Part shown: piece by piece, positions 1 to 64,000 of the stretch
Numbering within the stretch: the stretch's first letter is position 1
Layout: every line of letters starts with the position of its first letter
DNA from: a virus
Lineage: Duplodnaviria > Heunggongvirae > Uroviricota > Caudoviricetes
Virus record (IMG/VR): IMGVR_UViG_3300033150_000619
Direction: 5' to 3' (one strand)
Length of the DNA stretch: 64,000 bases
The notes under the pieces: generated by a model
Seen by the model: the letters and a program-made list of their open reading frames with translations, nothing else
Told to the model about the DNA's origin: nothing
Database searches by the model: none
Program-made: the position numbers and the translations under genes

Positions 1-400
1 GCAGGTCTATATGTCCTTTCCATATTCTAGAGTTATTGAAGATACCATCGATATAGGACGTAGCTACCCGTATCTCTTCCTTAGTATCACTGTATCTTTT
101 CTCTAGATCTTCCCAGGTAATATCCTCATTATCGAGGATATCATCTACCATAATGGCAAAGTCCTTCAGGTCCCACTCGTTGACGGAAGACCGATTCCTC
201 CTAGCTTCTATTATCCTATTGATTATCTGCTTGATCCTGGCTACCCTATATGAAGAGTAAACAATCTTCATATCCTCTAATAGGTCTTCCATCTCTTTGC
301 GTTGAGATATAGTTAGCTGATCCCAATAGAAGTCTCCTTGTATATCCCATATACTCCTATCCTTGACCAAACCGACTTCCCTCTTAGTAATATAGAACAT
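1..400 (-). CDS. hypothetical protein, N-terminal part (gene runs past window start)
   Basis: Minus-strand ORF with ATG at 400..398 (MFYITKREVGLVKDRSIWDIQGDFYWDQ...) open through position 1; no recognisable motif. Confidence 0.4.
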   Translation of the reverse strand, partial: MFYITKREVGLVKDRSIWDIQGDFYWDQLTISQRKEMEDLLEDMKIVYSSYRVARIKQIINRIIEARRNRSSVNEWDLKDFAIMVDDILDNEDITWEDLEKRYSDTKEEIRVATSYIDGIFNNSRIWKGHIDL

Positions 401-432
401 ATCTAGATCAACGTTTTAAGCCTTCATAGTGA

Positions 433-672
433 TCAATTAGTTAGCTTTGATCTAAGTCTATCCTTAGCTTTCTTATGTTTAGCAATCTCCATACCATCCC
501 AGTCTAATTTCTCTAGTTTAGATTTTAGACAGAAGAAATCACAGAAGTGCCACTGGAATGGATTATAGGTTCCCCTGAACTTGTAGGTTCCGTGTAGCTC
601 AATCCATAGCATCATATCTGGGATCAGCTCACCGCAATAATCACACCTAGTAATACCATCTTTAGTATACAT
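433..672 (-). CDS. small Cys-rich protein
   Basis: 79 aa with CDYCGE...HFCDFFC cysteine pairs; contains a 12/14 variant of the dispersed palindrome at 444-457. Confidence 0.4.
   Translation of the reverse strand: MYTKDGITRCDYCGELIPDMMLWIELHGTYKFRGTYNPFQWHFCDFFCLKSKLEKLDWDGMEIAKHKKAKDRLRSKLTN
444..457. repeat. dispersed palindrome variant gCTTtGATCTAAGT (12/14)
   Basis: Inside 433..672 (codes RLRSK). Confidence 0.75.
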
Positions 673-933
673 AGATTACACCAACAATACAGTGATCGAG
701 TTAGATAATGATAATAGTCTACCCTTGCATTTAGTCTATTAAGGTCAGCTATCTGATGTAGCATGAGACGATGATAGTTATTGGCTGACCAGTCAAACCT
801 CAGTCTTACCATCTCATTACCAGTTGGAGCGTTAGCTAACTTATCTATTAACTCCATCTCATAGAGATATTCTATTAATCCTAGCTTAGACAAGTTCCTT
901 CCTCTTTGTGACTTTGGGCTGGTTCGTCCACCA

Positions 934-6145: not shown

Positions 6146-6607
6146 TCACAGAAACTCGTCAGATACAAGTATGGGTGCGAACTGCGTAATCATTTGTTCT
6201 GCTTTCTCTCTAAGTTCCTCGAATTCCTTATCCTGTTGTTCTCGAGTTGTTGTATCTATGCCACACTTGATCATCTCTAAGAATTCAACAGGGTGTTCAA
6301 TCAAATAGGCTTGTATTCTATCTCTACGGTCACCCATGCCTGGCTCAAAGTAAATAGACCAAGAGTCAGGTGCCCACCTGGGCTTGTTAGATATCATTAT
6401 TGATGTCTTGAAGCCACTGCTGGGAAAGTACCATCTCTTAAAGTACTTACCGAACTGTTCTAGTATAGCCTCTTTCTCTATGGACTTAGACAGACTCTCC
6501 CTAGTGGAGGTTGCTTCTATAGCATCTACCTCTAACCACTTAGATCTAAGTCTTGTTAGATGCTCCAAGCACCACTCGAAGTCAGAAAGGTCTTCCAAAT
6601 CTACCAC
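6146..6607 (-). CDS. hypothetical protein
   Basis: 153 aa; contains palindrome copy at 6538-6551 encoding TRLRSKW. Confidence 0.4.
   Translation of the reverse strand: MVDLEDLSDFEWCLEHLTRLRSKWLEVDAIEATSTRESLSKSIEKEAILEQFGKYFKRWYFPSSGFKTSIMISNKPRWAPDSWSIYFEPGMGDRRDRIQAYLIEHPVEFLEMIKCGIDTTTREQQDKEFEELREKAEQMITQFAPILVSDEFL
6538..6551. repeat. dispersed palindrome ACTTAGATCTAAGT copy
   Basis: Exact 14-mer; inside 6146..6607 (codes LRSK). Confidence 0.95.
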
Positions 6608-7949
6608 GTTCCTTTGATGTATCTTCTAACCTCACCCATGTACCGAAGGGTGGGTCGCTGTTGTTTGCATTAGCACAGAGAATCCACAGTGTGTGGAAGT
6701 TATATCTGGACTTGTCGAGATAGTCTTGGTCCCCGTATAGGTCTGTCATGTATATCAGCAGCTTGCACTTAGGATAGTTTTCCTTGATGTGTTCGAAAAC
6801 TGGCTTAAACAGTGTACCACCGTATCCTCTACCTCTCATCTTACGAGGGTCGAATCCGTGATCAAAGTTATCCACCGTCTGTACTTCAGCATCACAGGTT
6901 ATTATTGTAAACTTGATCCTACCTTTGTATTGGTTGTCAAGCCCCACTATCTCAGAGATGAATTCCTTGTATTCATGGTCAGAAATAGAACCAGAGGTAT
7001 CTATGCCTACGAATACCTCTATCTCCTCTTTCTTTAGGTTCGGTATATAGAATCCTGCCTGTTGTGATCTCTTATTTGGCTTGAAGTATGTGTAGTCTTT
7101 AGGCAGAGTCGCCTGTACAAACTTCTTCACTATAGATTGCCATGGTACCTGTGACTCTGTCAATCCGTCAATAATCCTCTCCATACCGAGAGGAGCTTTG
7201 CCTTGTTGCTTGGCGTAGTTGTATGCTTCCTTTAGTACCTTATCCCAGTGAGGTTGTTGTTTTTCGTCTCCCTCTCCAAAGCCATATCCGTAGTTCTTTG
7301 AGCCATCGCCTTGCTGTGATGTCTTCTTACCTGTACCGTTGCACTGTTGGCATTTTTGCTGTGTCTTAGGATCTCTGCCGGTACCTTTACAGTTATCGCA
7401 CTGGTCGCTTTCTCCATCTCCCTGTTGGTTGTCAACGTCGATATAGATGTGCACATCTATCTGTCCCTCTCTCATTCCATCGAGCTGAGACTGTGATAGA
7501 GTTTGTAGATCTTCGTATACCTCTTCAGCGTACCAATCTCTGTACTTTGTATCATGAAGCCAGTTATTCGGTATATGGAAGTTGTTCTGCTTTAGAATCT
7601 CGTTGATAACCAAGTCAGCAGAGTAATTCCACATATCTTCATCCCTCGACATCTTACGATCAAGATGTAGAAGGACTGCATGATGTACTTCATGACATAT
7701 CACTGACAGTAATTCCTCTAAGCTCAATGAGTCTACGAAGTCAGGTGAGTAGAACAGTCTACCCCACTTATCCACGCCCATTGTTGGAACTAACTTCATC
7801 AGGAACTCGTTATCTGCCTCAATAAACCTGAGATGCAGAACAAGCGTCCCGAAGAAGGGTCTCTCCTTAAGAAGAATTACCCTAGCCTTCATCAGCTTCT
7901 CTAGAGGTGTTAGTTTCCTTAGTCTAAACTTCTTTATCTGTGACAACAC
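6582..7949 (-). CDS. VWA-domain protein with N-terminal HExxH metallopeptidase-like domain (partner of MoxR-type ATPase)
   Basis: 455 aa; CHEVHHAVLLH zinc-binding motif in N-terminal half; central Gln/Cys-rich linker; C-terminal VGIDTSGSISD MIDAS motif of a VWA domain. Confidence 0.7.
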   Translation of the reverse strand: MLSQIKKFRLRKLTPLEKLMKARVILLKERPFFGTLVLHLRFIEADNEFLMKLVPTMGVDKWGRLFYSPDFVDSLSLEELLSVICHEVHHAVLLHLDRKMSRDEDMWNYSADLVINEILKQNNFHIPNNWLHDTKYRDWYAEEVYEDLQTLSQSQLDGMREGQIDVHIYIDVDNQQGDGESDQCDNCKGTGRDPKTQQKCQQCNGTGKKTSQQGDGSKNYGYGFGEGDEKQQPHWDKVLKEAYNYAKQQGKAPLGMERIIDGLTESQVPWQSIVKKFVQATLPKDYTYFKPNKRSQQAGFYIPNLKKEEIEVFVGIDTSGSISDHEYKEFISEIVGLDNQYKGRIKFTIITCDAEVQTVDNFDHGFDPRKMRGRGYGGTLFKPVFEHIKENYPKCKLLIYMTDLYGDQDYLDKSRYNFHTLWILCANANNSDPPFGTWVRLEDTSKERGRFGRPF

Positions 7950-8233
7950 GTCACCCGCTCATTGTTTTTAGGGTCGGGTCTCCGGTAGTGAGCCGGAATA
8001 TAAAAGAAGTATGCTTACTCAGATAACCACTTTCGTACATTGGCAATTACAGCTATCAACTCATCTATCAGTTCTTCTGGATCATAATACTCGTCATTGA
8101 ACATTAAGTTCACTTTAACTTCTGACTTGTTGAATGGTTCGTTTTCATACTCATATGCTTGAACACTCATCATATGCGTCCGTGCAGCTACGTGTACTCT
8201 TACACCTTTCCGTTCCTCTATTTCCACTATCGT

Positions 8234-8545
8234 TTACTTCCTAAACAGTTCCCAGTAGACTGCATCCTCTGTCGAGTTTGCGTATAATAATAAATACACT
8301 ATAGTACCATGTCTCCAAGTCCGTATAGTATTAACATCAGATATACCTCCCCCAAGTGGATCCTTACCACCATCCTCGTTAATGATGGACTCAAGATTCT
8401 TAACCATCAGTCTTAGGTACGGATAGGCTGTCCATCGATGATTCGATACTACTATTATATGGTAAGTTGCTGTCCCATAGTAGCTCAGGAATCTTCTTAT
8501 TGATTCAACGGACTTATCGGGAATAAAGAAGGGATATTGTTCCAA
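8234..8545 (-). CDS. hypothetical protein
   Basis: 103 aa minus ORF between the AAA ATPase and VWA genes. Confidence 0.35.
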   Translation of the reverse strand: MEQYPFFIPDKSVESIRRFLSYYGTATYHIIVVSNHRWTAYPYLRLMVKNLESIINEDGGKDPLGGGISDVNTIRTWRHGTIVYLLLYANSTEDAVYWELFRK

Positions 8546-12383: not shown

Positions 12384-13034
12384 TTAGAGATTACAACTTG
12401 AGTCTGGTCCAACGTTGAGAGGCTCATCAACCTCAGGTACCTTCATCTTGGGCAATTGCTCAGCTATACTCAGTGTAGTGTCTATAGCCCACTCTAATGA
12501 GTGACCAAGGGGCATCGGTAGATCAACTTTGTGTACATCATCTTCTACCTCATCCTTTAGCCTCTTAGCCCTTACACTAACTGCAACATACCCAAGGAGC
12601 ATGGTCTTTATCGCATTGCAAAACTCGATAGTGATACTGCCATCATCATTATAGTGTTCTTCCGTATAGTACTGTGTAATTTTACTGAGCCACTTGCGAA
12701 TAAATCCTATGAGCTCTTCCTGAGACCATTCTTCAATGTCTATATTCCAAGGTTTTAATCCCATAGAGTCCACTTCTCTACGAGAGTAGCCTGAGTCAGA
12801 TAATATGTCATAGAACATATCTTCTCTAACCTTGTTCTCATCAAGAGGTCGATTGACCATCTGCCTCAGCTGGGCAAAGATATCTCCCTTCTCTTCTTCG
12901 CTTAGCTGGGAGAAAGCCTCCCTTGCTTTCTCTTCCTCAGTAGGTTCTTCATCAATGGTGAAGTCCCAAGGGTCTATATCATCTTCTGGACTGTTCATTT
13001 CTTTTAAACTCCTTAGCCTTCTCTTCACTTTCAA
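12384..13034 (-). CDS. acidic hypothetical protein
   Basis: 216 aa, Asp/Glu-rich N-terminus. Confidence 0.4.
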   Translation of the reverse strand: MKVKRRLRSLKEMNSPEDDIDPWDFTIDEEPTEEEKAREAFSQLSEEEKGDIFAQLRQMVNRPLDENKVREDMFYDILSDSGYSRREVDSMGLKPWNIDIEEWSQEELIGFIRKWLSKITQYYTEEHYNDDGSITIEFCNAIKTMLLGYVAVSVRAKRLKDEVEDDVHKVDLPMPLGHSLEWAIDTTLSIAEQLPKMKVPEVDEPLNVGPDSSCNL

Positions 13035-13422
13035 AGTACACGAATCTTCTATTATAGTCTACAGCCGACAGACTCTGTATTGTCCTGGCTTTATACTTAT
13101 TGATAAGGTCTATTGCACGACTTAGATCTAAGTGATTTAACTCATCTTTACCGAAGGGTAGTTGTACAATCACATAGTATGATGTATTGTACTTCTTCCA
13201 ATATCTGGACGTGCGTGTGAATCCAATGTCAGTGACCTTGGGGAGGTCCATATAGAATTCTATCTCGTCATCTTTATAGATCGGGGAAGCTTCATCCCAT
13301 ATGGATTCAATAGCTGTTGATGTACAGACCACTATAGGGCATAGCCAGTCCAGGTCTATTACATCACACACTACATACGGAAGCAGATTAATAGAGAAAA
13401 CTGGTTCATCATAGGGACTCAC
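12979..13422 (-). CDS. hypothetical protein
   Basis: 147 aa; contains palindrome copy 13120-13133 encoding HLDLSR. Confidence 0.4.
   Translation of the reverse strand: MSPYDEPVFSINLLPYVVCDVIDLDWLCPIVVCTSTAIESIWDEASPIYKDDEIEFYMDLPKVTDIGFTRTSRYWKKYNTSYYVIVQLPFGKDELNHLDLSRAIDLINKYKARTIQSLSAVDYNRRFVYFESEEKAKEFKRNEQSRR
13120..13133. repeat. dispersed palindrome ACTTAGATCTAAGT copy
   Basis: Exact 14-mer; inside 12979..13422 (codes LDLS). Confidence 0.95.
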
Positions 13423-13907: not shown

Positions 13908-15671
13908 TCACTTACTGACCTGCGCCTTGTACATATCCTTTATCTTGATTATGGTATCTATGTCCTGTACTTTCTTATCCCATCTAATCCTAACCAACCT
14001 AGGACTTCTAAGTGAGAAGCCACTGCTGTACTGGTTGCTCTGGATTATTTCATAGGTAATAACCTCTACAACCAACTCCGGCTTAACACGGACTCCTTCT
14101 TTATCTTTAGAAAGAACAGTCAGAGACCTAGCTATTACTTCTAGGTCTGACTCAGATAGATTAGAGAAGTCACCTATCTCATAGAGAGTCTTCTTGGAGG
14201 GATGCTTCACTGCCAACCTAAAACTGGAGTAAACACCGGACTTCCTGCCGTGACCGTACTTAGCTTTGACGATGACTGCATCTATTGTATCTGTATTCTT
14301 CTTGAGTTTCATCCATGAGTTACTTCTCTTAGAGGGATAATACTTACCGTCTAGGTCCTTTACCATTATTCCTTCTTTACCCTTCTCAACCATAGAGTCG
14401 TAGTAAGCCATAAGTTCCTGTGGAGAGTTGAAGTAGTCTCCTTCTACAACTATCTCAGCCGGGAATATTGTATTGAGCTTACGGAACCTAGATCTAAAGT
14501 CCCAGTTAAGCATAGGGTGACCATCACAATACAATAGGTCGAATACTCTGATCTCTAAGTTCTCAGCACCATTGGTCAGGGCACTATGTGTGTCTCCTAT
14601 TGGCAGCTTCTCCCCATCAGAACCTCGAGCCATGAACTCGAACTCTGCTATGAAGGAAGTGGCACCAGTTACCTGCTTGAAGACGTTAGTTACATAACCT
14701 GCATCTGTAAAGGGAATACCATTCTGTAGGTGTCCGGTCCTCGAGAAGAATGCTATATTGTCTCCTGACTTATGGACTTGGATTCTGGCACCGTCATACT
14801 TCACATCTGCACGGCATGGGTACCTAACTCTTCCCGAATCAAATAGTTGAGCCAACATACAATTGATGAATGTACCTGGGACTATCTTCACATTATTGAG
14901 GGCATTATCCCCCTGCTGGGCAATGAGTAAGCCCTCAATCGTACCACGGAGCAAACACACATTGCTGAGTGTGTCCGCATTTACCCCAGCATATTCTCCA
15001 ACAGCAGAGATTATAGTCTCTGTGTTCAGACCCAGGTACACTCTCTTTCTCAACAACCAGGCGATATACTTAGCTTCTTCTTTCGTAGCTACTTCGAACA
15101 GTGAAACGATAGCACTGATCTTCTTGTGTGTCCCACTGGTCTCAGCTATCAGGTTGATTGAGTGATATACTTCATCTGCCAGCAGAGTTTCTTTGTCTCT
15201 GTCTTTAGCTAGGAAATAGGCTATGTCACCAATATCCCCATAGTCCTCTATGAGACTGTTCATCTCATTCCTACTCTTGTTAGATAGGATACGTAGGGCA
15301 TCTATTATTCTCTCATATCCTACGCCTATGGGCTTGTTCGACAGCTCACCCATTAGGAATTGAATCTTCTCTTTGTACGGTAAGGGTACTTCCCTAAGAA
15401 ATCTAATAGATTCTGTCCTCTTCCCCTTCAGGCTCTTTCTATCAGTGATAGCCTTATAGTGATTGATTATCTCACTGAACAGATACTTAGATCTAAGTGC
15501 TCTGCCTGAGCCGTATATCATGACCCAATGAAGGGGTAGGTTATACTCCCTAGAGATTTCCATCTCTGAGTATCCATTCTTCTTGAGTTCTTCAATAGCT
15601 CCTCTTAGGCTACCCTTCATCTTTAAGTAGTCTTCCAGAGAGGGCTTCTCTACAATACTCATAAGCGTCAA
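13908..15671 (-). CDS. lig: ATP-dependent DNA ligase
   Basis: 587 aa; ligase motif I ADVKYDGARIQV, motif IV EGIMVK, motif V WMKLKK; the size and an N-terminal domain resemble archaeal/eukaryotic-type Lig. Confidence 0.85.
   Translation of the reverse strand: MTLMSIVEKPSLEDYLKMKGSLRGAIEELKKNGYSEMEISREYNLPLHWVMIYGSGRALRSKYLFSEIINHYKAITDRKSLKGKRTESIRFLREVPLPYKEKIQFLMGELSNKPIGVGYERIIDALRILSNKSRNEMNSLIEDYGDIGDIAYFLAKDRDKETLLADEVYHSINLIAETSGTHKKISAIVSLFEVATKEEAKYIAWLLRKRVYLGLNTETIISAVGEYAGVNADTLSNVCLLRGTIEGLLIAQQGDNALNNVKIVPGTFINCMLAQLFDSGRVRYPCRADVKYDGARIQVHKSGDNIAFFSRTGHLQNGIPFTDAGYVTNVFKQVTGATSFIAEFEFMARGSDGEKLPIGDTHSALTNGAENLEIRVFDLLYCDGHPMLNWDFRSRFRKLNTIFPAEIVVEGDYFNSPQELMAYYDSMVEKGKEGIMVKDLDGKYYPSKRSNSWMKLKKNTDTIDAVIVKAKYGHGRKSGVYSSFRLAVKHPSKKTLYEIGDFSNLSESDLEVIARSLTVLSKDKEGVRVKPELVVEVITYEIIQSNQYSSGFSLRSPRLVRIRWDKKVQDIDTIIKIKDMYKAQVSK
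15485..15498. repeat. dispersed palindrome ACTTAGATCTAAGT copy
   Basis: Exact 14-mer; inside the DNA ligase gene (codes ALRSKY). Confidence 0.95.
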
Positions 15672-15858
15672 CTTCTACTTCATGTATCCAGTAAAAAAGA
15701 CTATAGCCAGGATAGTAATGCCTTATCTTACTCCACCTATGGTGATCCCATAATTCCTTATCTATTAAGAAGGTTGCAGATGCGGGTATGTCAACTGGGA
15801 ACTCCGATAGTATTCCAGGTATATCAAATGTCTCAATCTCCCATACGTATTTGTACAA
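15610..15858 (-). CDS. hypothetical protein
   Basis: 82 aa; overlaps the ligase start by 62 nt. Confidence 0.3.
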   Translation of the reverse strand: MYKYVWEIETFDIPGILSEFPVDIPASATFLIDKELWDHHRWSKIRHYYPGYSLFYWIHEVEVDAYEYCREALSGRLLKDEG

Positions 15859-24420: not shown

Positions 24421-24439
24421 TCTCTGCTACCGTCTTTCT

Positions 24440-46933: not shown

Positions 46934-46955
46934 AGTAATAATGAAAGAGGGGTAA

Positions 46956-48357: not shown

Positions 48358-51300
48358 CTATGCTACATTGATGTAAGTCCTATCATTAAACTCCTGGAGC
48401 TTGCCCTTGTTGTATTTGTTAGTTGACCTATAATATCCTACGACTCTGGAGAATACCTCAGTTGCACCACCACAACTGCTGCAGTCATAGTGTACACCAC
48501 GTTGGTAGCTACCACATTTGGGGCATATACTAAACGTAGCAGAGAAGTCAAAGTATGGTACCTTGGTGTTCTTAGCTATACTCTCCGTTAGCTTAGCTAG
48601 ACCTGCTGGGTGCGGGTCAGCTTCTCCTACATATATTCTATGGACTGTACCACCGGTAAAGGTAGTGAGATATGGCTCTTCAAAGAGCAGTCTCTCCTCC
48701 ATTCCCATTTCATAGGAAGGTGGAGTTATCATAGAAGTATAGTATGGGGAATCTGTCTCTCCCATCGTATATATATCTGGGTACTTCTTCCTGTCTTTGA
48801 TGGCTAAGTCAGTAGCAGAACCTTCAGCCGGTGTCATCTCAAAGTTCCACAGCAGACCCGTTTCCTGCTGTGTTGTCTTAGTCCAGTTCCTGATGTATTG
48901 AAGGACTCTAATTGCTAAGTCTCCAGCTTCTATAATATTACTTCCTGTATGGTTGATGCACATCTCATTAAGACCGACTATACCAATAGTACGGAAGAAT
49001 CTACTCAGGTCTACTTCGTAGATTCTTGCTATAGGCATAAGTCCACTATTAATAGACTTATTGACTATATCGCCCTTAATCTCTAGTGCTTCCCTAGCCA
49101 TAGAAAGAGTCATGTCTAGGTTATCAAATAACTCACTCTCTTCACGACTGATATACCCCAGACGACCTAAATTCAGTGTTATTACTCCTATTGAACCTGT
49201 GTTGCCTGATAAAGCCCACCTACCTCCTGCAGGTGGTAGCTGACTTAGATCTAAGTTTAATCTACAGCAGTTATGCGTTATTACACCATTAGCTAGTTGA
49301 TACAGATGCGGCTCTGGTAATTCAAGAGTATATACAGTGTCAGCGTGATACTTCTCCTTAATGTCTATGACCGATACCCACTGATAACCACCTTGATCAG
49401 TGTACTTACTGCTATTATCCTTACAGATACGTATTACCTGTGATGTCTTTAGTGTTCTAGTATATTTTATACCAAGGCTTCCTAATACATCACAGATATC
49501 ATCGGCTAACTCTGGATTGTTAATGTGTAGTTCATTGTCTCTATTGTAGCCGTCCCCCTGCCATAGACCATCTATCAGTCCTTGTCTGAAGTCTACAGAC
49601 CCTCTAAAGACAGCAGCTCTTAGTTTCTTCTCGGTGGATAACCTTCCACTCACGAAGCTTCTGACTAATCCTCTAACAGATTTATCATACGTTAATAGGG
49701 AAACAGCAGAGGATCTAGGATCAGGTACCTTAATCGACCTCGCTCCTAACGTGCGTTGCAGGAACTTAGTTATAAAATCTATATGTTCTGCTTCATCAGA
49801 ATGGAAGGTGAACTGTATCGCTTTACCAGTGTCTAGTCCTTCTGCAATGTATAGTCCAATTAGCCTACCTAGATCATAAGTTCCATATTCTGTATCATAT
49901 GGAGTAGATGCCATTGGGAGTCTCACTCCCGGTCGTAAGTCAACGGCTCTAATCACTCCATCATCTGTTAGGAATAGATGTGATTTCGTAACCTTTAGTA
50001 TGTTACCGTTGTCTAGATAAACATACAATAGATTGCTATCGTACTGATAGGCATCTACGTAGCAGGGAACAAACTCACCATTGACTAGTGCTTCTATGTT
50101 GTGTTTAGTGCTCGTTCTATAGAGATTCCTTAAGGTATCTCTAGAAACTCTACCATCAACGCGATAGATGACTTTGGTTTCTCCCTGGAAGCACATTGCT
50201 TGTACGCTGTCTTCATCAATACCAGAACCTACATAGTTCATGTAGTACCAGTTACCGAACTTAGCATCTGTACGCATTATCTCATAGAATAGATCTGAAC
50301 TAAAATCTGTAGACTTGATCAGATTTAGAGTTGGTATAGGGAACGTAAACACAGATCCTATTCCGTCCCCTTCATACAGAACATGATTAAAGGCTTTGAT
50401 TATAGTCTCTGCTTCATCTGCAAAGTCTTCATATGTATTACCATTGTCTAATACAGGTAACTCCCTGAGTTGTTTAGGACACTTAGAGTCAAATATTAAA
50501 TTAGTAAAGGGTGTATTACCAGTGAAGGCTATCTTACCATTTCTAAGAACTATCATGCTATTGTTGTCTGTATTAATACCGTACACTCTTCCATCGTAAG
50601 GAATAGTCTCAACCTCTGCATAAGTTCTATCTGTGAAGTCCCTAACTATAGATATATCATAAACTCCGTTGTCTCTTAATCTATTATTGGTTAAGTACCC
50701 AGCAATAACACATAATTCTTGGAATCTCAATAAGTCGGATTCGGAATTAGTATATAACCTAAATCTGGACTTAGATCCATCTCCCAACCTATATTCAGAT
50801 AAGAACAATCTGGCCTGGTTTCTTGACAACAAAGATGTCCACTTAGGTATGGATTTACTATATCCACTCTTATAGAAAGTAAATCTCTTGACTGGTGCAT
50901 TAGCACACCCGCCGGAATATTCAGACTCTGTCCATTCTATACCATTATCAGACAGAGTGGATCTTATGCACTCTATATTCTCTGGATTGAGTATAGATTG
51001 TCCTATTACTATTCTATCCTCTTTGGTTTTGTTAGGTGTTATATTACCCTCAGAGACTATCCATGCCCACAACCTTATTTCTTCATCCGTAATTGGATAA
51101 TCTTCCCTGTCAATAAGTCCCATAGCAGGAACTAAGACTCTAGATTTCCTATCGAATATGTCTTTAGCCATCTCAAATCTAGGAGTATCATCATAATAGG
51201 GAAATGTAATAACTCTGTGTTCTGGAACGACTAATTGATCAGTTCTCTCATTGTGTATGTGATACATTAATCCATTATAATTGTATCTAACTACCTTGTG

Positions 51301-52947
51301 GATGGGCAATACCTCTATTTCTCTAGTCTCCATATTGAAGGTTAAGGCTAAGTCGGACTCAGATATCTCATCTATTGATTTCCATCCATCTAGAGTTAGA
51401 GTAAGGGTATCTTCAGATACACACTGATAACCTGCTCTAGAAGGATAATTTAGATTGAATATAAGCCTCTGCATCTCCTGCTTAACTTCCTCATAGGATA
51501 GGTTGTCGTGGTAGACAAACGGGGCTAACAACCAGTTGACATTAGATATAGCTTGGGCACCAGCCCATTCCTGCTGTGATGTAGCCATAAAGTTCACTAT
51601 ATGGTCTACAGCTGTATTAAGGTGCTTAGCAGGCTTAGATCTAATTCTTGTAGTTATTAGTCCCATATTCAACAGTTTGAACAGATCAGCACCATAACAA
51701 TTATGTACTTTGAGTCCAACAGTAGAGAATATACCAGATTCTGTTGTTATATCATAGACCATCTTCCCCTTCCAAGGAATCCTCCATAGCTTCTTTACCC
51801 TAGGAGTTCTGTCGTAGTAATCTATATTGCCTGGCTTTCCAACTCTGTACCGAATATCATTCTTACTGGTAATCTTTAATGATTCAGAGAATAGAGTGAT
51901 ACATCTCTCTTCCATGAATATCTTAAGTTTGAATATATTCTCAGTGGTACTAAATCTCATTGCTACCGGAAGACGTATGATATCAAACAGTGTCTTTAGT
52001 TGGCTGACTAATTCATATGATGTAGTGTCTATCCCAATTATAGATGCTCCTTGTTTAGGGGTGATACACCAACCGTCTCCGTCTATTATACCTGCTATGA
52101 TATCAAAGAAGGTCTCTTGTGTGAAGTCAGTATATGGAATAGCTTTATTGTGGGATCCGTTCTCCGGAACAGAGAATAGACGTTTGACTAACAGATTATC
52201 TCCATTAATAACTATATCCTTCCCGTATATCGAGAAATCTATATTATAGTCTACTAATACCCTTAGTATCTTGTTCTTCTCTGGTGAATCGTATTCTATA
52301 CAGTAGTTCTTCCCTCTTTTGAATCCTTTGGCTATGTACATTCCTAACAACCAGGCAATATCAGACGCAATGTGTGTTCTTCCAAAGACAAATCGTCTAG
52401 ATGGAAGAGCTGTAGTTAACTTATCTCCTACATTCAGTTCTGAAGCAGGCACAGTAGTTTCTGCAAGTCCTACAAAGATAGGGTGATCCTCTGTTACAAT
52501 TAGTATCCTTCCATTGTCTGTTTCAATTCCAATTAGATCACAGTGTGAGGGATGTGACTGTGTATCAATTATATTAACCCAGGTAGCATTGTCCTGTAAA
52601 GTCTCTAGATTGCTCTTACCTTGTACGTCTTTAAGAGACGTAAAGAAAGGTCTCTTGATGTTAGCATCTCGAACTAGGATTGATGTAGAGCCTATATACG
52701 AATAGGGAACTATACCATCGCTGAGATTATGTATATGGAAGTACCCATCTAAGTAAGCCTTCCTAATCATATCGGGATACTGGCTTAGTGAGTATCTCTT
52801 AATGTTCTTCTTAGTCATATATGCCTGTAGACCTGAGTATGATATATCTGAGTTAGCGTTCTCCTTAATCTGCCAGTCACTCTTCTGTATGTAACTCTCA
52901 ATATCATTGCTCCACGAATCGTCAGTAGTCCTTAATAGCTCGTCCAT
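48358..52947 (-). CDS. nrdD: anaerobic ribonucleoside-triphosphate reductase (class III RNR) interrupted by three inteins
   Basis: 1529 aa; N-terminal YLDGYFHIHNLSDG; conserved CCRLNLD just after intein 3; C-terminal Zn ribbon CPKCGSY...CSSCGG and glycyl-radical motif SRVVGYYRS; the extein sums to about 637 aa; GGAG Shine-Dalgarno 8 nt upstream. Confidence 0.85.
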   Translation of the reverse strand: MDELLRTTDDSWSNDIESYIQKSDWQIKENANSDISYSGLQAYMTKKNIKRYSLSQYPDMIRKAYLDGYFHIHNLSDGIVPYSYIGSTSILVRDANIKRPFFTSLKDVQGKSNLETLQDNATWVNIIDTQSHPSHCDLIGIETDNGRILIVTEDHPIFVGLAETTVPASELNVGDKLTTALPSRRFVFGRTHIASDIAWLLGMYIAKGFKRGKNYCIEYDSPEKNKILRVLVDYNIDFSIYGKDIVINGDNLLVKRLFSVPENGSHNKAIPYTDFTQETFFDIIAGIIDGDGWCITPKQGASIIGIDTTSYELVSQLKTLFDIIRLPVAMRFSTTENIFKLKIFMEERCITLFSESLKITSKNDIRYRVGKPGNIDYYDRTPRVKKLWRIPWKGKMVYDITTESGIFSTVGLKVHNCYGADLFKLLNMGLITTRIRSKPAKHLNTAVDHIVNFMATSQQEWAGAQAISNVNWLLAPFVYHDNLSYEEVKQEMQRLIFNLNYPSRAGYQCVSEDTLTLTLDGWKSIDEISESDLALTFNMETREIEVLPIHKVVRYNYNGLMYHIHNERTDQLVVPEHRVITFPYYDDTPRFEMAKDIFDRKSRVLVPAMGLIDREDYPITDEEIRLWAWIVSEGNITPNKTKEDRIVIGQSILNPENIECIRSTLSDNGIEWTESEYSGGCANAPVKRFTFYKSGYSKSIPKWTSLLSRNQARLFLSEYRLGDGSKSRFRLYTNSESDLLRFQELCVIAGYLTNNRLRDNGVYDISIVRDFTDRTYAEVETIPYDGRVYGINTDNNSMIVLRNGKIAFTGNTPFTNLIFDSKCPKQLRELPVLDNGNTYEDFADEAETIIKAFNHVLYEGDGIGSVFTFPIPTLNLIKSTDFSSDLFYEIMRTDAKFGNWYYMNYVGSGIDEDSVQAMCFQGETKVIYRVDGRVSRDTLRNLYRTSTKHNIEALVNGEFVPCYVDAYQYDSNLLYVYLDNGNILKVTKSHLFLTDDGVIRAVDLRPGVRLPMASTPYDTEYGTYDLGRLIGLYIAEGLDTGKAIQFTFHSDEAEHIDFITKFLQRTLGARSIKVPDPRSSAVSLLTYDKSVRGLVRSFVSGRLSTEKKLRAAVFRGSVDFRQGLIDGLWQGDGYNRDNELHINNPELADDICDVLGSLGIKYTRTLKTSQVIRICKDNSSKYTDQGGYQWVSVIDIKEKYHADTVYTLELPEPHLYQLANGVITHNCCRLNLDLSQLPPAGGRWALSGNTGSIGVITLNLGRLGYISREESELFDNLDMTLSMAREALEIKGDIVNKSINSGLMPIARIYEVDLSRFFRTIGIVGLNEMCINHTGSNIIEAGDLAIRVLQYIRNWTKTTQQETGLLWNFEMTPAEGSATDLAIKDRKKYPDIYTMGETDSPYYTSMITPPSYEMGMEERLLFEEPYLTTFTGGTVHRIYVGEADPHPAGLAKLTESIAKNTKVPYFDFSATFSICPKCGSYQRGVHYDCSSCGGATEVFSRVVGYYRSTNKYNKGKLQEFNDRTYINVA
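49243..49256. repeat. dispersed palindrome ACTTAGATCTAAGT copy
   Basis: Exact 14-mer inside the nrdD extein right after CCRL (codes NLDLSQ). Confidence 0.95.
49270..50193 (-). mobile_element. intein 3 in nrdD
   Basis: aa 919-1226; starts CFQGETKVIYRVDG, ends VYTLELPEPHLYQLANGVITHN followed by CCRL; internal GLYIAEG / LIDGLWQGDG LAGLIDADG-like motifs. Confidence 0.7.
50515..51423 (-). mobile_element. intein 2 in nrdD
   Basis: aa 509-811; starts CVSEDTLTLTLDGW, ends RVYGINTDNNSMIVLRNGKIAFTGN followed by Thr. Confidence 0.65.
51634..51645. repeat. dispersed palindrome variant CTTAGATCTAAT (11/12)
   Basis: Inside the nrdD extein (codes RIRSK). Confidence 0.8.
51700..52542 (-). mobile_element. 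intein 1 in nrdD with LAGLIDADG homing-endonuclease domain
   Basis: aa 136-416; starts with Cys after SHPSH, ends MVYDITTESGIFSTVGLKVHN followed by Cys; two LAGLIDADG-like motifs (LLGMYIAKGF, IAGIIDGDGW). Confidence 0.75.
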
Positions 52948-53145: not shown

Positions 53146-55242
53146 ATGCCCTATAAGTCTATCTCTGAGTTACCTGCCAGTGTCAGAAATACACTACCAG
53201 TGTCTGCATTAAGGATATGGATGAATGCATATAATTATGCCATAGCCAATCCAGATAAAGTCGAAGGTGAGCCAGCCCAGTATGCTTGGGGAGCTGTTAA
53301 GAAAGTCTATGAGAAAAGGGACGGTAAGTGGGTTAAGAAGAACAACTTAGATCTAAGTGTGCAGGAGATAGAAGACCTGCAGCTTACTACTGCTGACATT
53401 GTAGACATACTTCCTAAGAGGTTCTGGGAAGTTCCTGTTAGATATGGGTACAGAGTTGCATCTGACATGGGTAGATTGCTATGGAATGGGTTGAAGAGTA
53501 CGTTTACTTCTAGTGTCAGCCTTGATGACTACGTAGGACAGCCTATCCACCTAATAGAAGATGTAGTATCCTACGGTACCTTCATCCTTAAGAAATCAGT
53601 AAGTAAGAGGAAGGATGAGGACGAAGAAGATGAGTTTGACTTCTATGTATATGAAGTAGACTGGCTTAGGAAGTTCCCTGGTCCTTTGCCTGTTAGGGTT
53701 AGGAAGAAAGAGTATGGTCTACTCAATAGGAAAGACTATTCCTTTAAGATGTTAAGTGGACTTAGTAATAGAGACCTACTCTATATACACTCTTACTGCC
53801 ATAGTGGTCACCATCTCGGGATAAAGGAGTTTCATGACCTTGTGGCTAAGGAAATGGAGAGAAGAGGTATAATACATCCAGTCTATGCACCAATGGATAA
53901 GGACACACCTGAAATACCTGCTCCTGACATTGGGGATACACCTCAATTAGATATAGAGGATAAAGTTACATTAGAGCAGTTCCTGTCTATGCTACCAGAT
54001 CAGTTTTCTCTAGACGCTCCTCCACCTAAGATGTGGGTTACAGGGGATATAGTTAACAAAGGGATAACTACAATATCTGATGGCATAGACATAGTGGTAG
54101 GGCAGGATGAAGTAGATCCCCGCATAATCAGTAAGATAGCCAGCTTAATAGGAGATGACAGAGTTAAGAAGAGTATCAGGGTCATATTCTCTACAGAGGG
54201 TCCTCCCTTTGGATATAGTATTCCCCTTTACAGGGATGCATTCCAGAAACTAAGCTATAGAAGCACATTTAATCCTACAGACTACCTTAGATATACGCGT
54301 CCATCAGACAATACATATACTAATCTACAGACTTTATGGGATGAGTGGGGCAGCGTTAGAATAGATGACGGTTTATTCGTAGAGAAGAGATATGATGGTA
54401 TACCTGTATCTGTACATCATTTCCCTGGCAGTCGTACAATAATCCGCAAGAACAAGGTACCACTTAAGTTAGATTCGATAGAGTTAGAACTTAGTAAAAT
54501 TGATAGACAGTTTGTAGGTATGGGTACAATAGTCCAGTATGACTGCAACAACATCAAAGTGAATAAGATAGAGGAGCTCTGTAAGCCTATCCCCGCTGGT
54601 GCTGAAAAGTTAAGGAAGAAGCCATTTGGATACACACACGCATCTGACTGTACAGTCCTCCACTTACACGAAATAGTATTCTTAGATAATACACCAATAC
54701 ATAACGGATCATATAAAGAAAGGGTAGAGTTAATGGACTCCCTCATCCCGGATGATTTAATCCATGTGAGGAAAGTACCCTATTCATTGGTTAAGTCCAA
54801 AGCAGAATTAGAGAGTGCAGTATCTCAGTTATTGAGTATCGGATCAGACGGTGTCAACATTAAGGAAGCTACCTCAACATTCAACTTCAGTGGTAAGAGT
54901 AAACAGATGGTAGACTTAGACAAAGACAGTGATGTTATTGTAATAAAGCTAAAGGACTGTACTCTGTTTCATGATGAGAATATATGTCCTCTCTACACCT
55001 TAACACATCATTCATTAACTAAAGTAGCTATTGAAGAATTACAGTACCCAGTGAAGTGTCAATTAGCATCATTAGTAAAGTGTCCCTTGGTGAAGGACTA
55101 CTACTATCAGTTATCTAAGCCTGTAGAAATTAAGAACTGGTTTATACCCTTGACAGAACCAGATCCTTCAGATACTCATACTCCTCTAAATCAATCAGAC
55201 CAGCCTTATAGGACTTATACAGAAACCGGAGGGCTTTCCTAG
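53146..55242 (+). CDS. ChaB-domain protein fused to a large C-terminal domain with degenerate ligase-like motifs
   Basis: 698 aa; N-terminal 70 aa (MPYKSISELPASVRNTLPVSALRIWMNAYNYA...AWGAVKKVYEKRDGKWVKK) closely match the ChaB N-terminus as recalled from memory; C-terminal FVEKRYDGIP, VLHLHEIVF, DGVNIKE and IVIKLKD resemble ligase motifs I, III, IV, V with the catalytic positions altered; AGGAGAG Shine-Dalgarno 6 nt upstream. Confidence 0.6.
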   Translation: MPYKSISELPASVRNTLPVSALRIWMNAYNYAIANPDKVEGEPAQYAWGAVKKVYEKRDGKWVKKNNLDLSVQEIEDLQLTTADIVDILPKRFWEVPVRYGYRVASDMGRLLWNGLKSTFTSSVSLDDYVGQPIHLIEDVVSYGTFILKKSVSKRKDEDEEDEFDFYVYEVDWLRKFPGPLPVRVRKKEYGLLNRKDYSFKMLSGLSNRDLLYIHSYCHSGHHLGIKEFHDLVAKEMERRGIIHPVYAPMDKDTPEIPAPDIGDTPQLDIEDKVTLEQFLSMLPDQFSLDAPPPKMWVTGDIVNKGITTISDGIDIVVGQDEVDPRIISKIASLIGDDRVKKSIRVIFSTEGPPFGYSIPLYRDAFQKLSYRSTFNPTDYLRYTRPSDNTYTNLQTLWDEWGSVRIDDGLFVEKRYDGIPVSVHHFPGSRTIIRKNKVPLKLDSIELELSKIDRQFVGMGTIVQYDCNNIKVNKIEELCKPIPAGAEKLRKKPFGYTHASDCTVLHLHEIVFLDNTPIHNGSYKERVELMDSLIPDDLIHVRKVPYSLVKSKAELESAVSQLLSIGSDGVNIKEATSTFNFSGKSKQMVDLDKDSDVIVIKLKDCTLFHDENICPLYTLTHHSLTKVAIEELQYPVKCQLASLVKCPLVKDYYYQLSKPVEIKNWFIPLTEPDPSDTHTPLNQSDQPYRTYTETGGLS
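53345..53358. repeat. dispersed palindrome ACTTAGATCTAAGT copy
   Basis: Exact 14-mer inside the plus-strand ChaB-fusion gene (codes NNLDLSV). Confidence 0.95.
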
Positions 55243-56883: not shown

Positions 56884-57987
56884 TCACCCCCTTATCTTAG
56901 TGTATATGTCTGTAACTGTATCCTTGATGGTTAATGCTACCGATATGGCTGCAGTATAGAGACCTGTACTAGTCTCTTTAGTTAACATATCTGTAGCTAA
57001 ATCTTTTAGGTACACAGTCACATACCTACTGAGTACTGTCCACCATGTATAGAACTCTGATATGATGGGAGCCTCGCTCCACGTTCTATACCATTGAGAC
57101 ACCCTACTAAAGTAATCACTTAGATCTAAGCCCTGTAATCTAACCGATTGATATTCCTTAACTATGAAGTCCTGTGCTGAGATACCTTGGGTCCTTAGCA
57201 TGAAATATGTCCTGTAGAGGATATGGTATAGATTGATAGGGGTATACGGACTCCTGTACCAACTTAATGTCCTGTTATAGGCATCCTGTATTCTAATATC
57301 CGTAATCCTGCGATGGTTGTATCTATTGGAGATATTGTCAATGACGGACATACCTGTCTCTGATACCCACCCATACACTTTGGAGAGATAACCTGCCATT
57401 AGAGTACTGTCATACATATTACGGTAATATTCTACCTCCCTGAAGAAGATGGAGTATAGACTTAGGTACTCATTGAATACGAATAACATATATTGCTTAA
57501 AGATAAAGTATCCATCTACAACTACAGAGTCTACTAGAGTCCTACTGTATCCCCACACTCTCTGTGATGTAGCCGAGAGAGATGTAGAATGAGTCAGCTC
57601 CTTACGTACATCCCATATTCTGTTATATAGACTATACATGGACCATGATTGGATCAAAGATGGTCTAAAGTCTGCCTGGCGAATAGCAGATGCAATTAGA
57701 AGTAATGTGTCCTCACATACCTGCCTAAAACCATACGTTGTTATTATGTAATCTAAGAGATATATGGACTCTACAAATCCTTGAGATACAAGTGGCTTTA
57801 GATAACTAAAGTAATCTGCTATAGAGATACCCTGGATTAATGACCACTGTAACTGAGATACTGCGCTGTAGTAGTGTGATAGTATTAAAGATTGTAATAG
57901 ACTTAGATACTCGCCAACAATACCATAACCTCGGGTTACGAGCTGTTGGTGCTCGCCGAGTCCTCTGGTTATGATGGTATGTGGCAT
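56884..57987 (-). CDS. Tyr/Ser-rich structural-like protein (baseplate or fibre-associated?)
   Basis: 367 aa, low-complexity Y/S/L-rich; abuts the previous gene; contains palindrome copy 57118-57131 encoding QGLDLSDY. Confidence 0.4.
   Translation of the reverse strand: MPHTIITRGLGEHQQLVTRGYGIVGEYLSLLQSLILSHYYSAVSQLQWSLIQGISIADYFSYLKPLVSQGFVESIYLLDYIITTYGFRQVCEDTLLLIASAIRQADFRPSLIQSWSMYSLYNRIWDVRKELTHSTSLSATSQRVWGYSRTLVDSVVVDGYFIFKQYMLFVFNEYLSLYSIFFREVEYYRNMYDSTLMAGYLSKVYGWVSETGMSVIDNISNRYNHRRITDIRIQDAYNRTLSWYRSPYTPINLYHILYRTYFMLRTQGISAQDFIVKEYQSVRLQGLDLSDYFSRVSQWYRTWSEAPIISEFYTWWTVLSRYVTVYLKDLATDMLTKETSTGLYTAAISVALTIKDTVTDIYTKIRG
57118..57131. repeat. dispersed palindrome copy (exact 12-mer, 13/14 of the 14-mer)
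   Basis: ACTTAGATCTAAGc inside 56884..57987 (codes GLDLSD). Confidence 0.95.
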
Positions 57988-62100: not shown

Positions 62101-62286
62101 ATTCACCATCGTATACTCAGTTGGCGTTTGAGCTGTCATAGGAACTTCGTCATCCATCTGGACTAGTTCGTCAAACGTATCCTGTAACCATGAGTATAAG
62201 GCATTAACAGTATAGACAGTTGTACCACTTGTATGATGTATCCTCTTGTAGTTGTAGTCTATACTGAAGTCATCACCTATAGCCAT
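59101..62286 (-). CDS. large fibre/adhesin-like protein (putative receptor binding)
   Basis: 1061 aa, very rich in Thr/Gly/Ser/Asp/Tyr/Asn, no enzymatic motif; largest gene of the distal module. Confidence 0.45.
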   Translation of the reverse strand: MAIGDDFSIDYNYKRIHHTSGTTVYTVNALYSWLQDTFDELVQMDDEVPMTAQTPTEYTMVNGWWLDIGDDSNAHKYLRGGAIATSGQTNVIRLLKLEAWTGGTLTSGDIGDVVDYNSGGDGSTGVLIGYNNTNHYLWVRQDDTGDVFSDTTNTIDVGGVSYGSIKDVNGTLSGDELFANIYTLGTIATNPYPQIYVFQNKEAIAEWSSLTNWDRGHIDIVIQVKEMGVEIDGAVVTVFARQGGDLYNHFEIDLSAGGRNAVPLATSTDLDQDDTGDYFLLYDGETGGGFAAGDIIVGASSGSEAEILAVTDWGTEGVLRLIGVSGDFTDNENLQVSGATRGVANGDSTAGCVGDTFMYFDNESGTLTTNTIYYATSGSTARRLLVGKDSTNSALVLRASPSSETNLQDEQYHYHKYVDDETISDGTNTADVNMTSGSAMGQTIAGYSVHCVSGYSDIKIQNVNLDLAYDGQTVNFSVGDIVKGATSGSFGIVIADNDQGTSGTLTLGNVTGPFQDDENLQVEDATGGGFTTHAVADGTGEIIHTTTKNYELGSSYNYDVIIDMNYYDIAGTQSYHMAPHTVAELYEYLKFVNRWDSSTSIYKVQRPWGKVYFYNETGTSYTDETSDWISDTADDVLFDMTEQEDALYFGSTEKFNKVWYNLTTEGDHANTITWEYYNGSTWTAVTHNGDAGEGESQTGAGDFDGSGTGWYAVWWDMPTNWAAGDGDGTVEQDYYWVRARVSSFSSTTTDPVIGQGYMWEIYNPEVGEEYTTAYYGYAEKAASPFGTFAGGVFFGAQGVWIENMATSDEQAYSLIDSDGSVRNPPNKQPITITGLESGDRVTVFRLTGNGGEIDKDIYTVSSGSQYGSSVVMTASLDDDTPTTGVLRIVDDSESLEYRIRYASWSSDTVTLRTKVTSTTDQNGGATILYDADGDFVNNGIIYGDIVCNETDGSYAYAVTVAAGQVTTTALSGGSGNTWDSGDTYSFHTIPETLTGSDTAYIPFIDKQATGSTETVTVIYTTDRDILARVRKKGIIPFEIESDFDSDGVSIPATRTTDSIVS

Positions 62287-62332
62287 TGCTTTCTCTCCCT
62301 AACAACATATACCATGGAGACAATATTAAATA

Positions 62333-64000
62333 TTATCCACCAATGGTATCTTCGACCAGTGTAATAGTTATACTGTAACTTCCAGTGAATGATGCTGATA
62401 CATTGGCTGGGAGGTATCGTGTGCCGGAGTCTGGCGAATGTCTTACTCTAATTATGGCATTTACCGTACCACCTGGATGGTTATATGATAGGGAAACATT
62501 ACCATCGCTATCTGTATTGCTGTTGATTAAGGGTACAGTAAATGTGTCTGATCCATCATATGACTGCGCAAGGCTGCAAATACTATATGTATCGCCGGTA
62601 TCCCAATGATTATCGGTGCCATCGATTAGTGGAGAATGAGCAATATGATCAGCGTCAATAATCTTAGTTACTTGTGCCCATGAACCATCCGTTTCATTGA
62701 CAATCATATCTCCCTCTTCAATATCAGATGTTAAGAAGTTAACACCACTATCATAAAGGACTGTTGGAGAATCATCAGTGTTATCTGCCTGGGCAGTAGT
62801 TTCGGGTGGGAACGTAAATACAGTACTAGACCTTGAAGCATATCTATACCAGTGCCATTCCTTTTCGTCAACTGCTCTAACAGTTATCCATCCACTAGAT
62901 GGCGTATCAGAATCTACTGAGGCTGATGCCTCAAATGTAGTGTCTCCTTGGCTGTTGTTAGTTGCATGGCTATAATAAGTAGTTGGGTTAGTCTTTTGCA
63001 TATATACCTGTGCCCCTTCGACACTATTCCCATCACCATTTTCAATATGGATATCTATCGATACTGTAGTCTCAAAGGATACTGTTGAACCCGCCGGGTT
63101 GTATGAACTTGCATTGCTATCAGTATTAGTTACTGTTATTGCACTGCCTGATGAGTTATAAACATCATAGGTATTGTTTGTAAATGTTAGATTGTTGAAT
63201 CCAATTGCAGATGCCACACTGATCTCAATAGCATCTGGATTACTGATAAAGCTACAGTAGGTAATATTGTGTGATGCAGATTCTATCAACACCGTGCCGT
63301 TACCAGCCGTTGGACCGGAGATGAAGTTACAGTTCGTTACATCCATTGTGTTTGGTTGGAACTGTCCCTGTCCATTAACAAAGTTACAGTTAAGAACTTC
63401 TAGATTTGTACCATCTGGCTGTAGGTCTATAGTTCCATAAGTATCAAAAGTTGAACCATATAATCCAAAATCATCTACATCTGTGTCTGTGGCAGTAAAC
63501 TCAAAGGCAAGGGTTGTAGCATTACATCTTATCGTACATCCGTTTATTCCCGCCGTGCCTGACTTTTCACCTAGCTCAAACCTCTGTGTTGCTCCGGTTG
63601 AGTTGCCCACTACTGTAATGGAGTATAGTGATGAAGATATGTAATCACTCTTATCTTCGAATATTACTACCTGGTTCTTGGCTACAAAGTCACTGCTGGA
63701 CGTACCAGTATCTCCTATGGTGAGGCTACCTGATGCGTAGTATATTCCTCCAAACTTCTTTAATACACCCCATCCACCGGTTGTTGCACTATCAGCTAGG
63801 TAGATGTCTTCAAAGTCAAATGAACTTCCACCATCGTCTCCATAGGCTGTCAATCCATCACAGTATATTAGGTTGTCCCACCAGAAGTTGTCTGTGTTCT
63901 TTGCAGTACTGGTTAAGTTTATTCTGATTATGATATCTGTTATAGCATTCATACTTGTTGGTTTTGTACCAGAGTCTACAGCCGTTGAAATATCTATAAT
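62333..64000 (-). CDS. parallel beta-helix repeat protein (tailspike/depolymerase-like or adhesin); N-terminus probably beyond window end
   Basis: More than 539 aa; repeated NCNF / ITYCSF / NLTFTNN rungs typical of right-handed beta-helix; the reading frame stays open upstream of the annotated Met to position 64000. Confidence 0.5.
   Translation of the reverse strand: MIDISTAVDSGTKPTSMNAITDIIIRINLTSTAKNTDNFWWDNLIYCDGLTAYGDDGGSSFDFEDIYLADSATTGGWGVLKKFGGIYYASGSLTIGDTGTSSSDFVAKNQVVIFEDKSDYISSSLYSITVVGNSTGATQRFELGEKSGTAGINGCTIRCNATTLAFEFTATDTDVDDFGLYGSTFDTYGTIDLQPDGTNLEVLNCNFVNGQGQFQPNTMDVTNCNFISGPTAGNGTVLIESASHNITYCSFISNPDAIEISVASAIGFNNLTFTNNTYDVYNSSGSAITVTNTDSNASSYNPAGSTVSFETTVSIDIHIENGDGNSVEGAQVYMQKTNPTTYYSHATNNSQGDTTFEASASVDSDTPSSGWITVRAVDEKEWHWYRYASRSSTVFTFPPETTAQADNTDDSPTVLYDSGVNFLTSDIEEGDMIVNETDGSWAQVTKIIDADHIAHSPLIDGTDNHWDTGDTYSICSLAQSYDGSDTFTVPLINSNTDSDGNVSLSYNHPGGTVNAIIRVRHSPDSGTRYLPANVSASFTGSYSITITLVEDTIGG

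Follow-up and report, generated by a model that had tools for sequence, protein, structure and literature searches.

A dispersed 14-bp palindrome in a predicted archaeal tailed virus: selection on DNA and a candidate array of protein-recognition sites

In the IncP plasmid RK2, the operators OB (TTTAGCGGCTAAA) and OA (a 14-bp palindrome, TGTTTAGCTAAACA) are dispersed round the replicon; some of these sites are distant from promoters, with KorB, a sliding clamp of the ParB family, acting at a distance (PMC11790492). Cluster A mycobacteriophages carry more than 20 copies of one 13-mer, the stoperator, at which a single repressor of the L5 gp71 type blocks elongating RNA polymerase; a stoperator lacks symmetry, binds a repressor monomer, points in the direction of transcription, and sits in a short intergenic space (PMC9283540), and their specificity is reported, in outline, to evolve within the phage group (PMC6550527). 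Here we describe an exact 14-bp palindrome, ACTTAGATCTAAGT, with its inner 12-mer CTTAGATCTAAG, that recurs through 64,000 nucleotides of viral DNA (IMG/VR record IMGVR_UViG_3300033150_000619; Caudoviricetes), a stretch referred to as the window.

The motif is under selection at the DNA level and is conserved in diverged relatives, while its positions turn over; the copies are fairly evenly spaced and hold no fixed relation to gene starts. With moderate confidence, we interpret the copies as a dispersed array of recognition sites for a homodimeric, dyad-symmetric DNA-binding protein, at about one site per 5 kb across the 95-kb non-structural block of the genome.

Count, exactness and coding frames of the motif

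The 12-mer occurs exactly ten times in the window, starting at positions 6539, 13121, 15486, 19390, 28475, 32701, 37129, 49244, 53346, and 57119. All ten positions, and the eight full 14-mers among them, agree with an earlier reading of the window made from its letters only (the sequence-only reading). Dinucleotide shuffles gave a mean of 0.02 copies and a maximum of 1, which bears out that reading's claim of enrichment beyond chance, and the motif tops all 10- to 14-mers of the window in over-representation. The sites at 37128 and 57118 each have one outermost base altered, with the 12-mer intact. Five near-copies had also been proposed: those at 444 and 51634 held up as copies with two mismatches in the 14-mer (starting at 444 and 51633) and 14488 as a 12-mer with two mismatches, but 50766 and 55686 are only half-sites. 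The 40 bp on each side of the copies have nothing in common, and no consensus extends past the 14 bp, where only a mild preference for G or C was seen at the next base. Twelve of the 23 AGATCT hexamers in the window lie within the motif. In the literature library searched, no paper contained the 14-mer, and the sole match to the 12-mer was in an unrelated paper on a plant virus.

To extend the analysis beyond the window, we used the IMG/VR contig IMGVR_UViG_3300033149_001352 (136,445 bp), which is 99% identical to it; a composite of 130,698 bp joins the window to flanks from contig positions 2054-55628, 77515-78928, and 88310-132184. In the composite, 15, 5, and 4 copies of the 14-mer were found with 0, 1, and 2 mismatches, respectively, against expectations of 0, 0.07, and 1.3. 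The excess falls almost wholly at zero or one mismatch, and the single changes among the window copies affect the outermost base pair. Isolated half-sites were about 2-fold over a crude Markov-1 expectation, a surplus that may reflect codon bias.

As the sequence-only reading had described, the motif is translated in two frames: x-AC TTA GAT CTA AGT gives LDLS and A CTT AGA TCT AAG T gives LRSK. Read in the third frame, the motif contains the stop codon TAG, whichever the orientation. Both stop-free frames are occupied, and copies are also found at stop codons and in intergenic DNA. The codon-preserving control that had been suggested was run as 1000 synonymous-codon shuffles within genes and 1000 codon-order shuffles. 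Neither kind reproduced the observed count; they gave means of 2.1-2.5 12-mers and a maximum of 5, against ten observed, and about two of the 12-mers remaining after shuffling were copies located outside the shuffled genes.

Conservation, turnover and variants among relatives

The lineage of the window genome is designated G1; G2 and G3 are further motif-bearing lineages at 55-70% protein identity. The G2 contig L122, which is syntenic with the window and about 55% identical in a 1061-aa protein, has two exact 14-mers within 17.7 kb. Two 12-mers, one of them a full 14-mer, are present in L222, a contig of 6.6 kb obtained from that sample, and its counterpart from another sample (L221) likewise has the 12-mer twice (6.6-7.9 kb for the pair); L222 may derive from the same genome as L122. 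In G3, contig L134 from an NCBI assembly encodes a ligase 65% identical to that of G1 and has the exact 14-mer three times in 13.8 kb. The expectation for the 14-mer in the G2 and G3 loci is about 1e-4 per locus. A non-palindromic 14-mer, ACCCAGATAAATAT, is also present three times in the 13.8 kb of L134, with one partial match of 11 nt in G1.

G1 and G3 share an orthologous site in the ligase gene (YGSG-x-A-LRSK, encoded with GCA CTT AGA TCT AAG T). In G4, the sister lineage of G3, LRSK is retained with the codons CTC AGA TCA AAG and the site is absent. In NrdD, AAC TTA GAT CTA AGT of G1 is aligned with GCT CTA GAT CTT AAC of G2; the two differ by synonymous changes and by two amino acids, without an indel. 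The site in the ChaB-ligase gene, and the other comparable sites of G2 and G3, are not conserved in position. The comparison of orthologous positions proposed in the sequence-only reading was thus positive for the ligase site, common to G1 and G3, and negative for the other comparable sites, which have turned over. These loci indicate that density is kept while most positions turn over.

Taken together, the data strongly support selection at the DNA level with codons accommodating the motif, as had been argued earlier. Codon shuffles fail to produce the observed count, and the 14-mer recurs in two further lineages at the protein identities given above. In addition, G4 lacks the ligase site while keeping the same LRSK residues, and the sites in NrdD and in the ChaB-ligase gene were made by substitutions without indels. 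Two 99%-identical G1 strains have too few expected substitutions between them to inform on purifying selection at the sites.

In a tree of the ATPase, G4 and G4b, in which no motif copy was found in about 15 kb, are nested among the three lineages that bear the motif (G1, G2, and G3). No copy was present in about 20 kb of the outgroup G5, or in the more distant relatives L125-L127 and L143. In GTDB loci that encode relatives of the 1061-aa protein (73 loci, 1.24 Mb in total), we found neither the motif nor any palindrome of at least 10 bp repeated at least three times. Because no comparable recurrent palindrome occurs in these 73 loci, the motif system is lineage-specific and not a general compositional effect. 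The simplest history would be a gain in the ancestor of G1-G4 with loss or change in G4. A ligase-based scan of JGI metagenomes returned one G1-identical contig and four contigs of relatives at 43-49%, and the same scan of GTDB gave no match. When IMG/VR was scanned for the motif, the matches listed comprised, besides the near-identical contig, single copies in loci unlike the window.

Two symmetric variants of CTTAGATCTAAG were seen as single copies: CTTGGATCCAAG in the L143 virus at position 4052 (also in L142 and L145), and CTCGGATCCGAG in G4 (L135, position 2323). Neither was found in 2.2 Mb of other viral loci. These single copies are only suggestive of a shifting specificity.

Distribution of the sites, gene content and host

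The composite contains 19 12-mers, 15 14-mers, and 21 10-bp cores. All but one of the 12-mers (18 of 19) lie between 1.7 and 95.5 kb, with gaps of 0.8-12.2 kb (mean 5.5 kb). About 95 kb of the composite is a minus-strand block of small genes, within which the spacing is more regular than random placement (coefficient of variation 0.62, P about 0.02). The last 35 kb, with the structural block, hold only one of the 19 (P about 0.02). Copies lie within called genes in 16 of 21 cases, with a mild lean toward gene ends, and the distance from the motif to the next downstream start codon ranges from 6 to 3500 bp. An archaeal core promoter (B-recognition element/TATA) was rejected as the identity of the motif, as its distance to start codons is not fixed and no element in the flanks is conserved.

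The sequence-only reading had described a single long gap at 37.1-49.2 kb that coincides with a compositionally foreign island. This gap does coincide with a GATC-free stretch, but it is not the sole long gap genome-wide. Window positions 38745-48210 (9.5 kb) have 0 GATC against 31 expected, compared with about 1 per 400 bp in the rest of the window; the lack of motif copies there follows from the absence of GATC, which the motif contains. The stretch has a slightly lower GC content and was probably acquired recently, as a gene island, from a genome that avoids GATC. Use of GATC varies widely among the relatives, from 2 in 23 kb (L127) to 104 in 17.7 kb (L122). Over the window as a whole, GGCC shows strong avoidance, with 13 occurrences where 78 would be expected, and GATC reaches about half the number expected; these shortages suggest host restriction pressure specific for GGCC and GATC.

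Along the window, the first copy is a degenerate one with two mismatches (GCTTTGATCTAAGT, 444..457), which encodes LRSK at the end of the open reading frame (ORF) 433..672(-). Exact 14-mers follow at 6538..6551, read as LRSK in ORF 6146..6607(-) and identical in the IMG/VR contig, and at 13120..13133, read as LDLS in ORF 12979..13422(-). The site that is orthologous in G3 and absent in G4 is the exact 14-mer at 15485..15498, which encodes LRSK in the ATP-dependent DNA ligase 13908..15671(-). The exact 14-mer at 19389..19402 encodes LDLS in ORF 19308..19646(-) and is positioned inside a longer, imperfect inverted repeat, CATTGGGA ... TCCCAATG (19379-19412; fold z = -3.6); the other nine window copies tested have no such longer inverted repeat. 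Contact of two copies with stop codons, reported earlier, is seen at the exact 14-mers 28474..28487, whose last base is in the TGA of ORF 28487..28840(-) and whose remainder is intergenic, and 32700..32713, which gives the TAG of ORF 32708..32998(-) and is 190 bp upstream of an SPFH gene. At 37128..37141, an exact 12-mer with a differing outer base (GCTTAGATCTAAGT) encodes LDLS in ORF 37041..37400(-).

Two copies are located in the gene for NrdD, 48358-52947(-): the exact 14-mer at 49243..49256 in the extein (CCRL-NLDLS-QLPP), and a degenerate copy at 51633..51646 (GCTTAGATCTAATT, 10-bp core exact) in an extein segment. The predicted NrdD has 1529 aa against 588 aa in G2, and from the blocks of similarity three inteins can be deduced, at about 52695-51700, 51423-50515, and 50190-49270; the copy at 49243 is 13-26 nt downstream of the third intein junction. 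The exact 14-mer at 53345..53358 encodes LDLS in a ChaB-DNA-ligase fusion, 53146..55242(+), and is not in the G2 ortholog (1032 aa). This fusion of ChaB with an ATP-dependent ligase is the only large opposite-strand gene in the minus-strand block. The last window copy, at 57118..57131, is an exact 12-mer with a differing outer base (ACTTAGATCTAAGC), read as LDLS in ORF 56884..57987(-).

A plus-strand block at about 107-127 kb of the composite encodes an HK97-type capsid protein, a tail tube protein, and very large proteins, with glycosyltransferase genes on either side. Outside the window there are two TFIIB/TFB homologs (E = 9e-39 and 2e-25; composite 7436..8503- and 24167..25054-) and an intein-containing N6_N4 DNA methylase with an SPPY motif (E = 2e-45; composite 15764..17581-, 24 kb left of the window). 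The genome further encodes NrdD, an ATP-dependent ligase of the Lig1 type, and a tRNA-intron endonuclease domain of the EndA type. The KaiC/RadA-like ATPase at 17724-18695(-) is 50-56% identical to many Candidatus Bathyarchaeia proteins and gives the best clue to the host lineage. On the basis of the two TFBs, the EndA nuclease, and the RecA-like ATPase closest to Bathyarchaeia, we assign the genome to an archaeal tailed virus, a point absent from the sequence-only reading, with Bathyarchaeia as the probable host. The sample label, DOMB18-1, presumably refers to Guaymas Basin sediment. Megablast of 8 kb of the window against the INPHARED cultured phages gave no match, and a PHROGs search gave almost no matches for large proteins.

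The virus is unusually intein-rich, with inteins in NrdD and at least five other genes; besides the methylase, the carriers include a 618-aa protein, a radical-SAM protein, and two glycosyltransferases. A cluster at 22712-27260(-) encodes an RNA ligase, a protein with an EndA-type domain, a full-length serpin (E = 3e-86), and a second RNA ligase, and may be an RNA repair or splicing module. A serpin is unusual for a virus of prokaryotes.

Candidate roles of the motif and comparison with known systems

We favor a dimeric binder because the 14-bp palindrome is perfect and unspaced, its central GATC does not vary, and its specificity is near-absolute. Two-fold recognition of duplex DNA by a protein calls for such symmetry, whereas a hairpin does not. 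Among the roles that the sequence-only reading had listed, a dimeric DNA-binding protein appears to fit best, in view of the symmetry and the sharp specificity. A protein dimer, either encoded by the virus or taken from its archaeal host, would bind each site and, from many entry points, could act on the whole non-structural block. The bound protein might block or silence transcription as a roadblock; alternatively, the copies might be loading sites for a spreading, sliding, or bridging protein that serves genome organisation, protection, or segregation. Fairly even spacing suits the roadblock and spreading options alike.

Several observations weigh against this interpretation. Pfam scans of essentially all ORFs of at least 60 aa in the 130.7 kb disclosed no ParB/KorB or ParA protein, no repressor of the stoperator type, and no other annotated regulator that could account for the motif; the scanned sequence takes in the genome as far as the IMG/VR contig extends, except for about 6 kb of it. 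The only matches to DNA-binding domains were the two TFBs, a weak winged helix-turn-helix (wHTH), a LAGLIDADG protein with a helix-turn-helix (HTH), and a weak AbrB/MazE-like match. A small wHTH protein (HTH_45), considered as the binder, is common to G2, G3, and partly G4b and has no G1 homolog. Even spacing and late-block depletion each reach only about P = 0.02. Most sites are intragenic, without a consistent tie to promoters or gene ends, and the regulatory logic is not readable from their placement. Finally, sequence alone cannot separate binding from cleavage or modification. ORFs of 35-59 aa in the gaps, judged by eye only, included none resembling ribbon-helix-helix proteins, and Serglycin matches in the Pfam scan were artefacts of GS linkers.

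It is possible, though we are doubtful, that the motif belongs to an undescribed genome-wide marking system, in which the evenly spaced array would load a new, non-ParB protein that coats, silences, protects, or segregates the chromosome, with a host that is probably a member of Bathyarchaeia and a co-evolving specificity, of which the symmetric variants CTTGGATCCAAG and CTCGGATCCGAG in related viruses would be a sign.

Cleavage or nicking by a virus-encoded endonuclease (homodimeric LAGLIDADG or HNH), for recombination-dependent replication, concatemer processing, or programmed nicks, seems unlikely. Recognition by a homodimeric nuclease would account for the 14-bp palindrome, its 4-bp self-complementary centre, and the all-or-none mismatch spectrum. 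The genome is moreover rich in LAGLIDADG sequences, with several inteins and a free-standing LAGLIDADG/HTH protein whose gene carries a site, and an HNH-like pattern (CxxC...HH...CxxC) can be seen by eye in ORF 35651..36118(-), although it is not called by Pfam. However, a virus enriching its own cleavage site about 1000-fold would reduce its genome to 5-kb pieces. Such enrichment is also the opposite of the target avoidance seen with restriction-modification and of single-copy homing sites; known homing endonucleases recognise longer, degenerate sites and find a single target in each genome. Known programmed nicks, such as those of T5-like phages, are confined to one strand, but a palindrome would expose both, and no nuclease could be tied to the motif.

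We consider it quite improbable that the motif is the target of a long-specificity DNA modification, for example by a beta-class N6/N4 methyltransferase placing epigenetic self-marks or modulating binding at AGATCT/GATC. The encoded N6_N4 methylase and the share of window AGATCT hexamers held by the motif centre (12 of 23) are consistent with this idea. On the other hand, we know of no methyltransferase with a 14-bp specificity, and one mark per 5 kb cannot shield a genome against restriction. Nor does modification by itself explain why positive selection should create sites, and the methylase shows no link to the motif.

Nearly all copies lie in sense DNA that is transcribed, the viral genes include those for RNA ligases and for an RNA endonuclease of the EndA type, and the copy at 19389 is in a longer inverted repeat; these points would suit an element acting in RNA, such as a hairpin, a duplex of two copies, or a site for an RNase or RNA-binding protein in long co-directional transcripts. 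Such a role is nevertheless highly improbable. The folding energy of the 14-mer by itself is just -0.9 kcal/mol (z = -1.1), most of the 34-nt contexts gain no stability over shuffles, and instead of stem covariation both the stem and the 'loop' GATC are invariant. Copies are also present in intergenic DNA and in genes of either orientation, and a perfect duplex of two copies would presumably lack the bulge-helix-bulge needed by EndA. An intrinsic terminator or a hairpin like repetitive extragenic palindromic elements was rejected on the weak fold, the invariance without covariation, and the mostly coding location.

Some further origins can be practically discounted, namely a by-product of protein motifs and codon bias, a scar left by a mobile element, and an artefact of assembly or adapters: the peptides LDL and LRSK are common, and half-sites exceed Markov-1 about 2-fold, but codon shuffles fail, two frames plus stops and intergenic DNA are used, and G4 has LRSK without the site; a miniature inverted-repeat transposable element or other mobile repeat was rejected on unrelated flanks and on NrdD, ligase, and ChaB-ligase orthologs that align without indel; and an artefact is ruled out because the motif lies in frame within conserved genes and is present in assemblies of independent origin, drawn from five sources (IMG/VR, ENA, JGI, Logan, and NCBI).

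Almost nothing is known about genome control or organisation in large archaeal tailed viruses, and Bathyarchaeia and their viruses are uncultured. An exact 14-bp word maintained across 55-70% protein identity is therefore a rare handle, which can be synthesised as bait for the binding protein among viral and host ORFs and used as a metagenome signature for this virus group. If symmetric variants were enriched in relatives, they would provide a natural series for protein-site co-evolution. The motif also allows a test of whether archaeal viruses have an independent counterpart to the operator or centromere arrays of bacterial plasmids and phages.

The sequence-only reading had stated that no described system matches this pattern. 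That was overstated, as the RK2 KorB/KorA operators, ParB-parS, Noc, SlmA, stoperators, and the P1 C1 operators are all comparable; to our knowledge, however, no dispersed array of exact sites has been described for an archaeal virus or with this sequence. ParB-parS, Noc-NBS, SlmA-SBS, and MatP-matS consist of 12-16-bp palindromes, often intragenic and in tens of copies, at which dimeric HTH proteins organise or position DNA. Unlike the viral motif, these chromosomal arrays are bacterial, have other sequences, and are confined to regions, and their protein families were not found in the viral genome. Baculovirus homologous regions (hr) with IE1, and papillomavirus E2 sites, are scattered palindromes with a restriction-site-like core, bound by a viral dimer in transcription, replication, and maintenance. 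The hr elements differ in being clustered, imperfect, 30-bp intergenic repeats, and the E2 sites in having a 4-bp variable spacer and a concentration in the control region; neither shows homology to the system described here. Chi and DNA uptake sequences resemble the motif as over-represented short words under DNA selection and scattered in coding sequence, but they are asymmetric, 5-12 nt long, and strand- or orientation-biased. The Chi-like signal proposed earlier is a poor fit, given a symmetric and long motif and an apparently archaeal host; as far as we know, Chi requires RecBCD/AddAB, which are absent from archaea.

With the RK2 KorB/KorA system, the virus shares one exact short palindrome dispersed over tens of kb, and TTAG/CTAA arms are present both in the motif and in the RK2 operators, which are palindromes of 13-14 bp. 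More generally, ParB/KorB arrays have a palindromic site of 13-16 bp in several dispersed copies, to which the 14 bp and 19 12-mers found here correspond. In contrast to RK2, Pfam scans of the 130.7 kb, whose reach ends short of very divergent proteins, found no ParBc or ParA/IncC homolog; the ATPases are of KaiC/RecA-like, AAA, and MoxR-like types, with no match to the ParA/CbiA family. The arm spacing also differs, most viral sites are intragenic, and the host is predicted to be archaeal. Stoperators are similar in that many copies of one site are spread across a viral genome, whereas the motif described here is perfectly palindromic and orientation-less, lies within called genes in 16 of 21 cases, and is rare in the structural block. 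In our analysis, the RK2 KorB/KorA operators and the cluster A stoperators appear to be the closest functional parallels, although on the features compared the array would be a member of neither group. Dispersed site arrays are a known kind of system, and the archaeal-virus setting is what is new.

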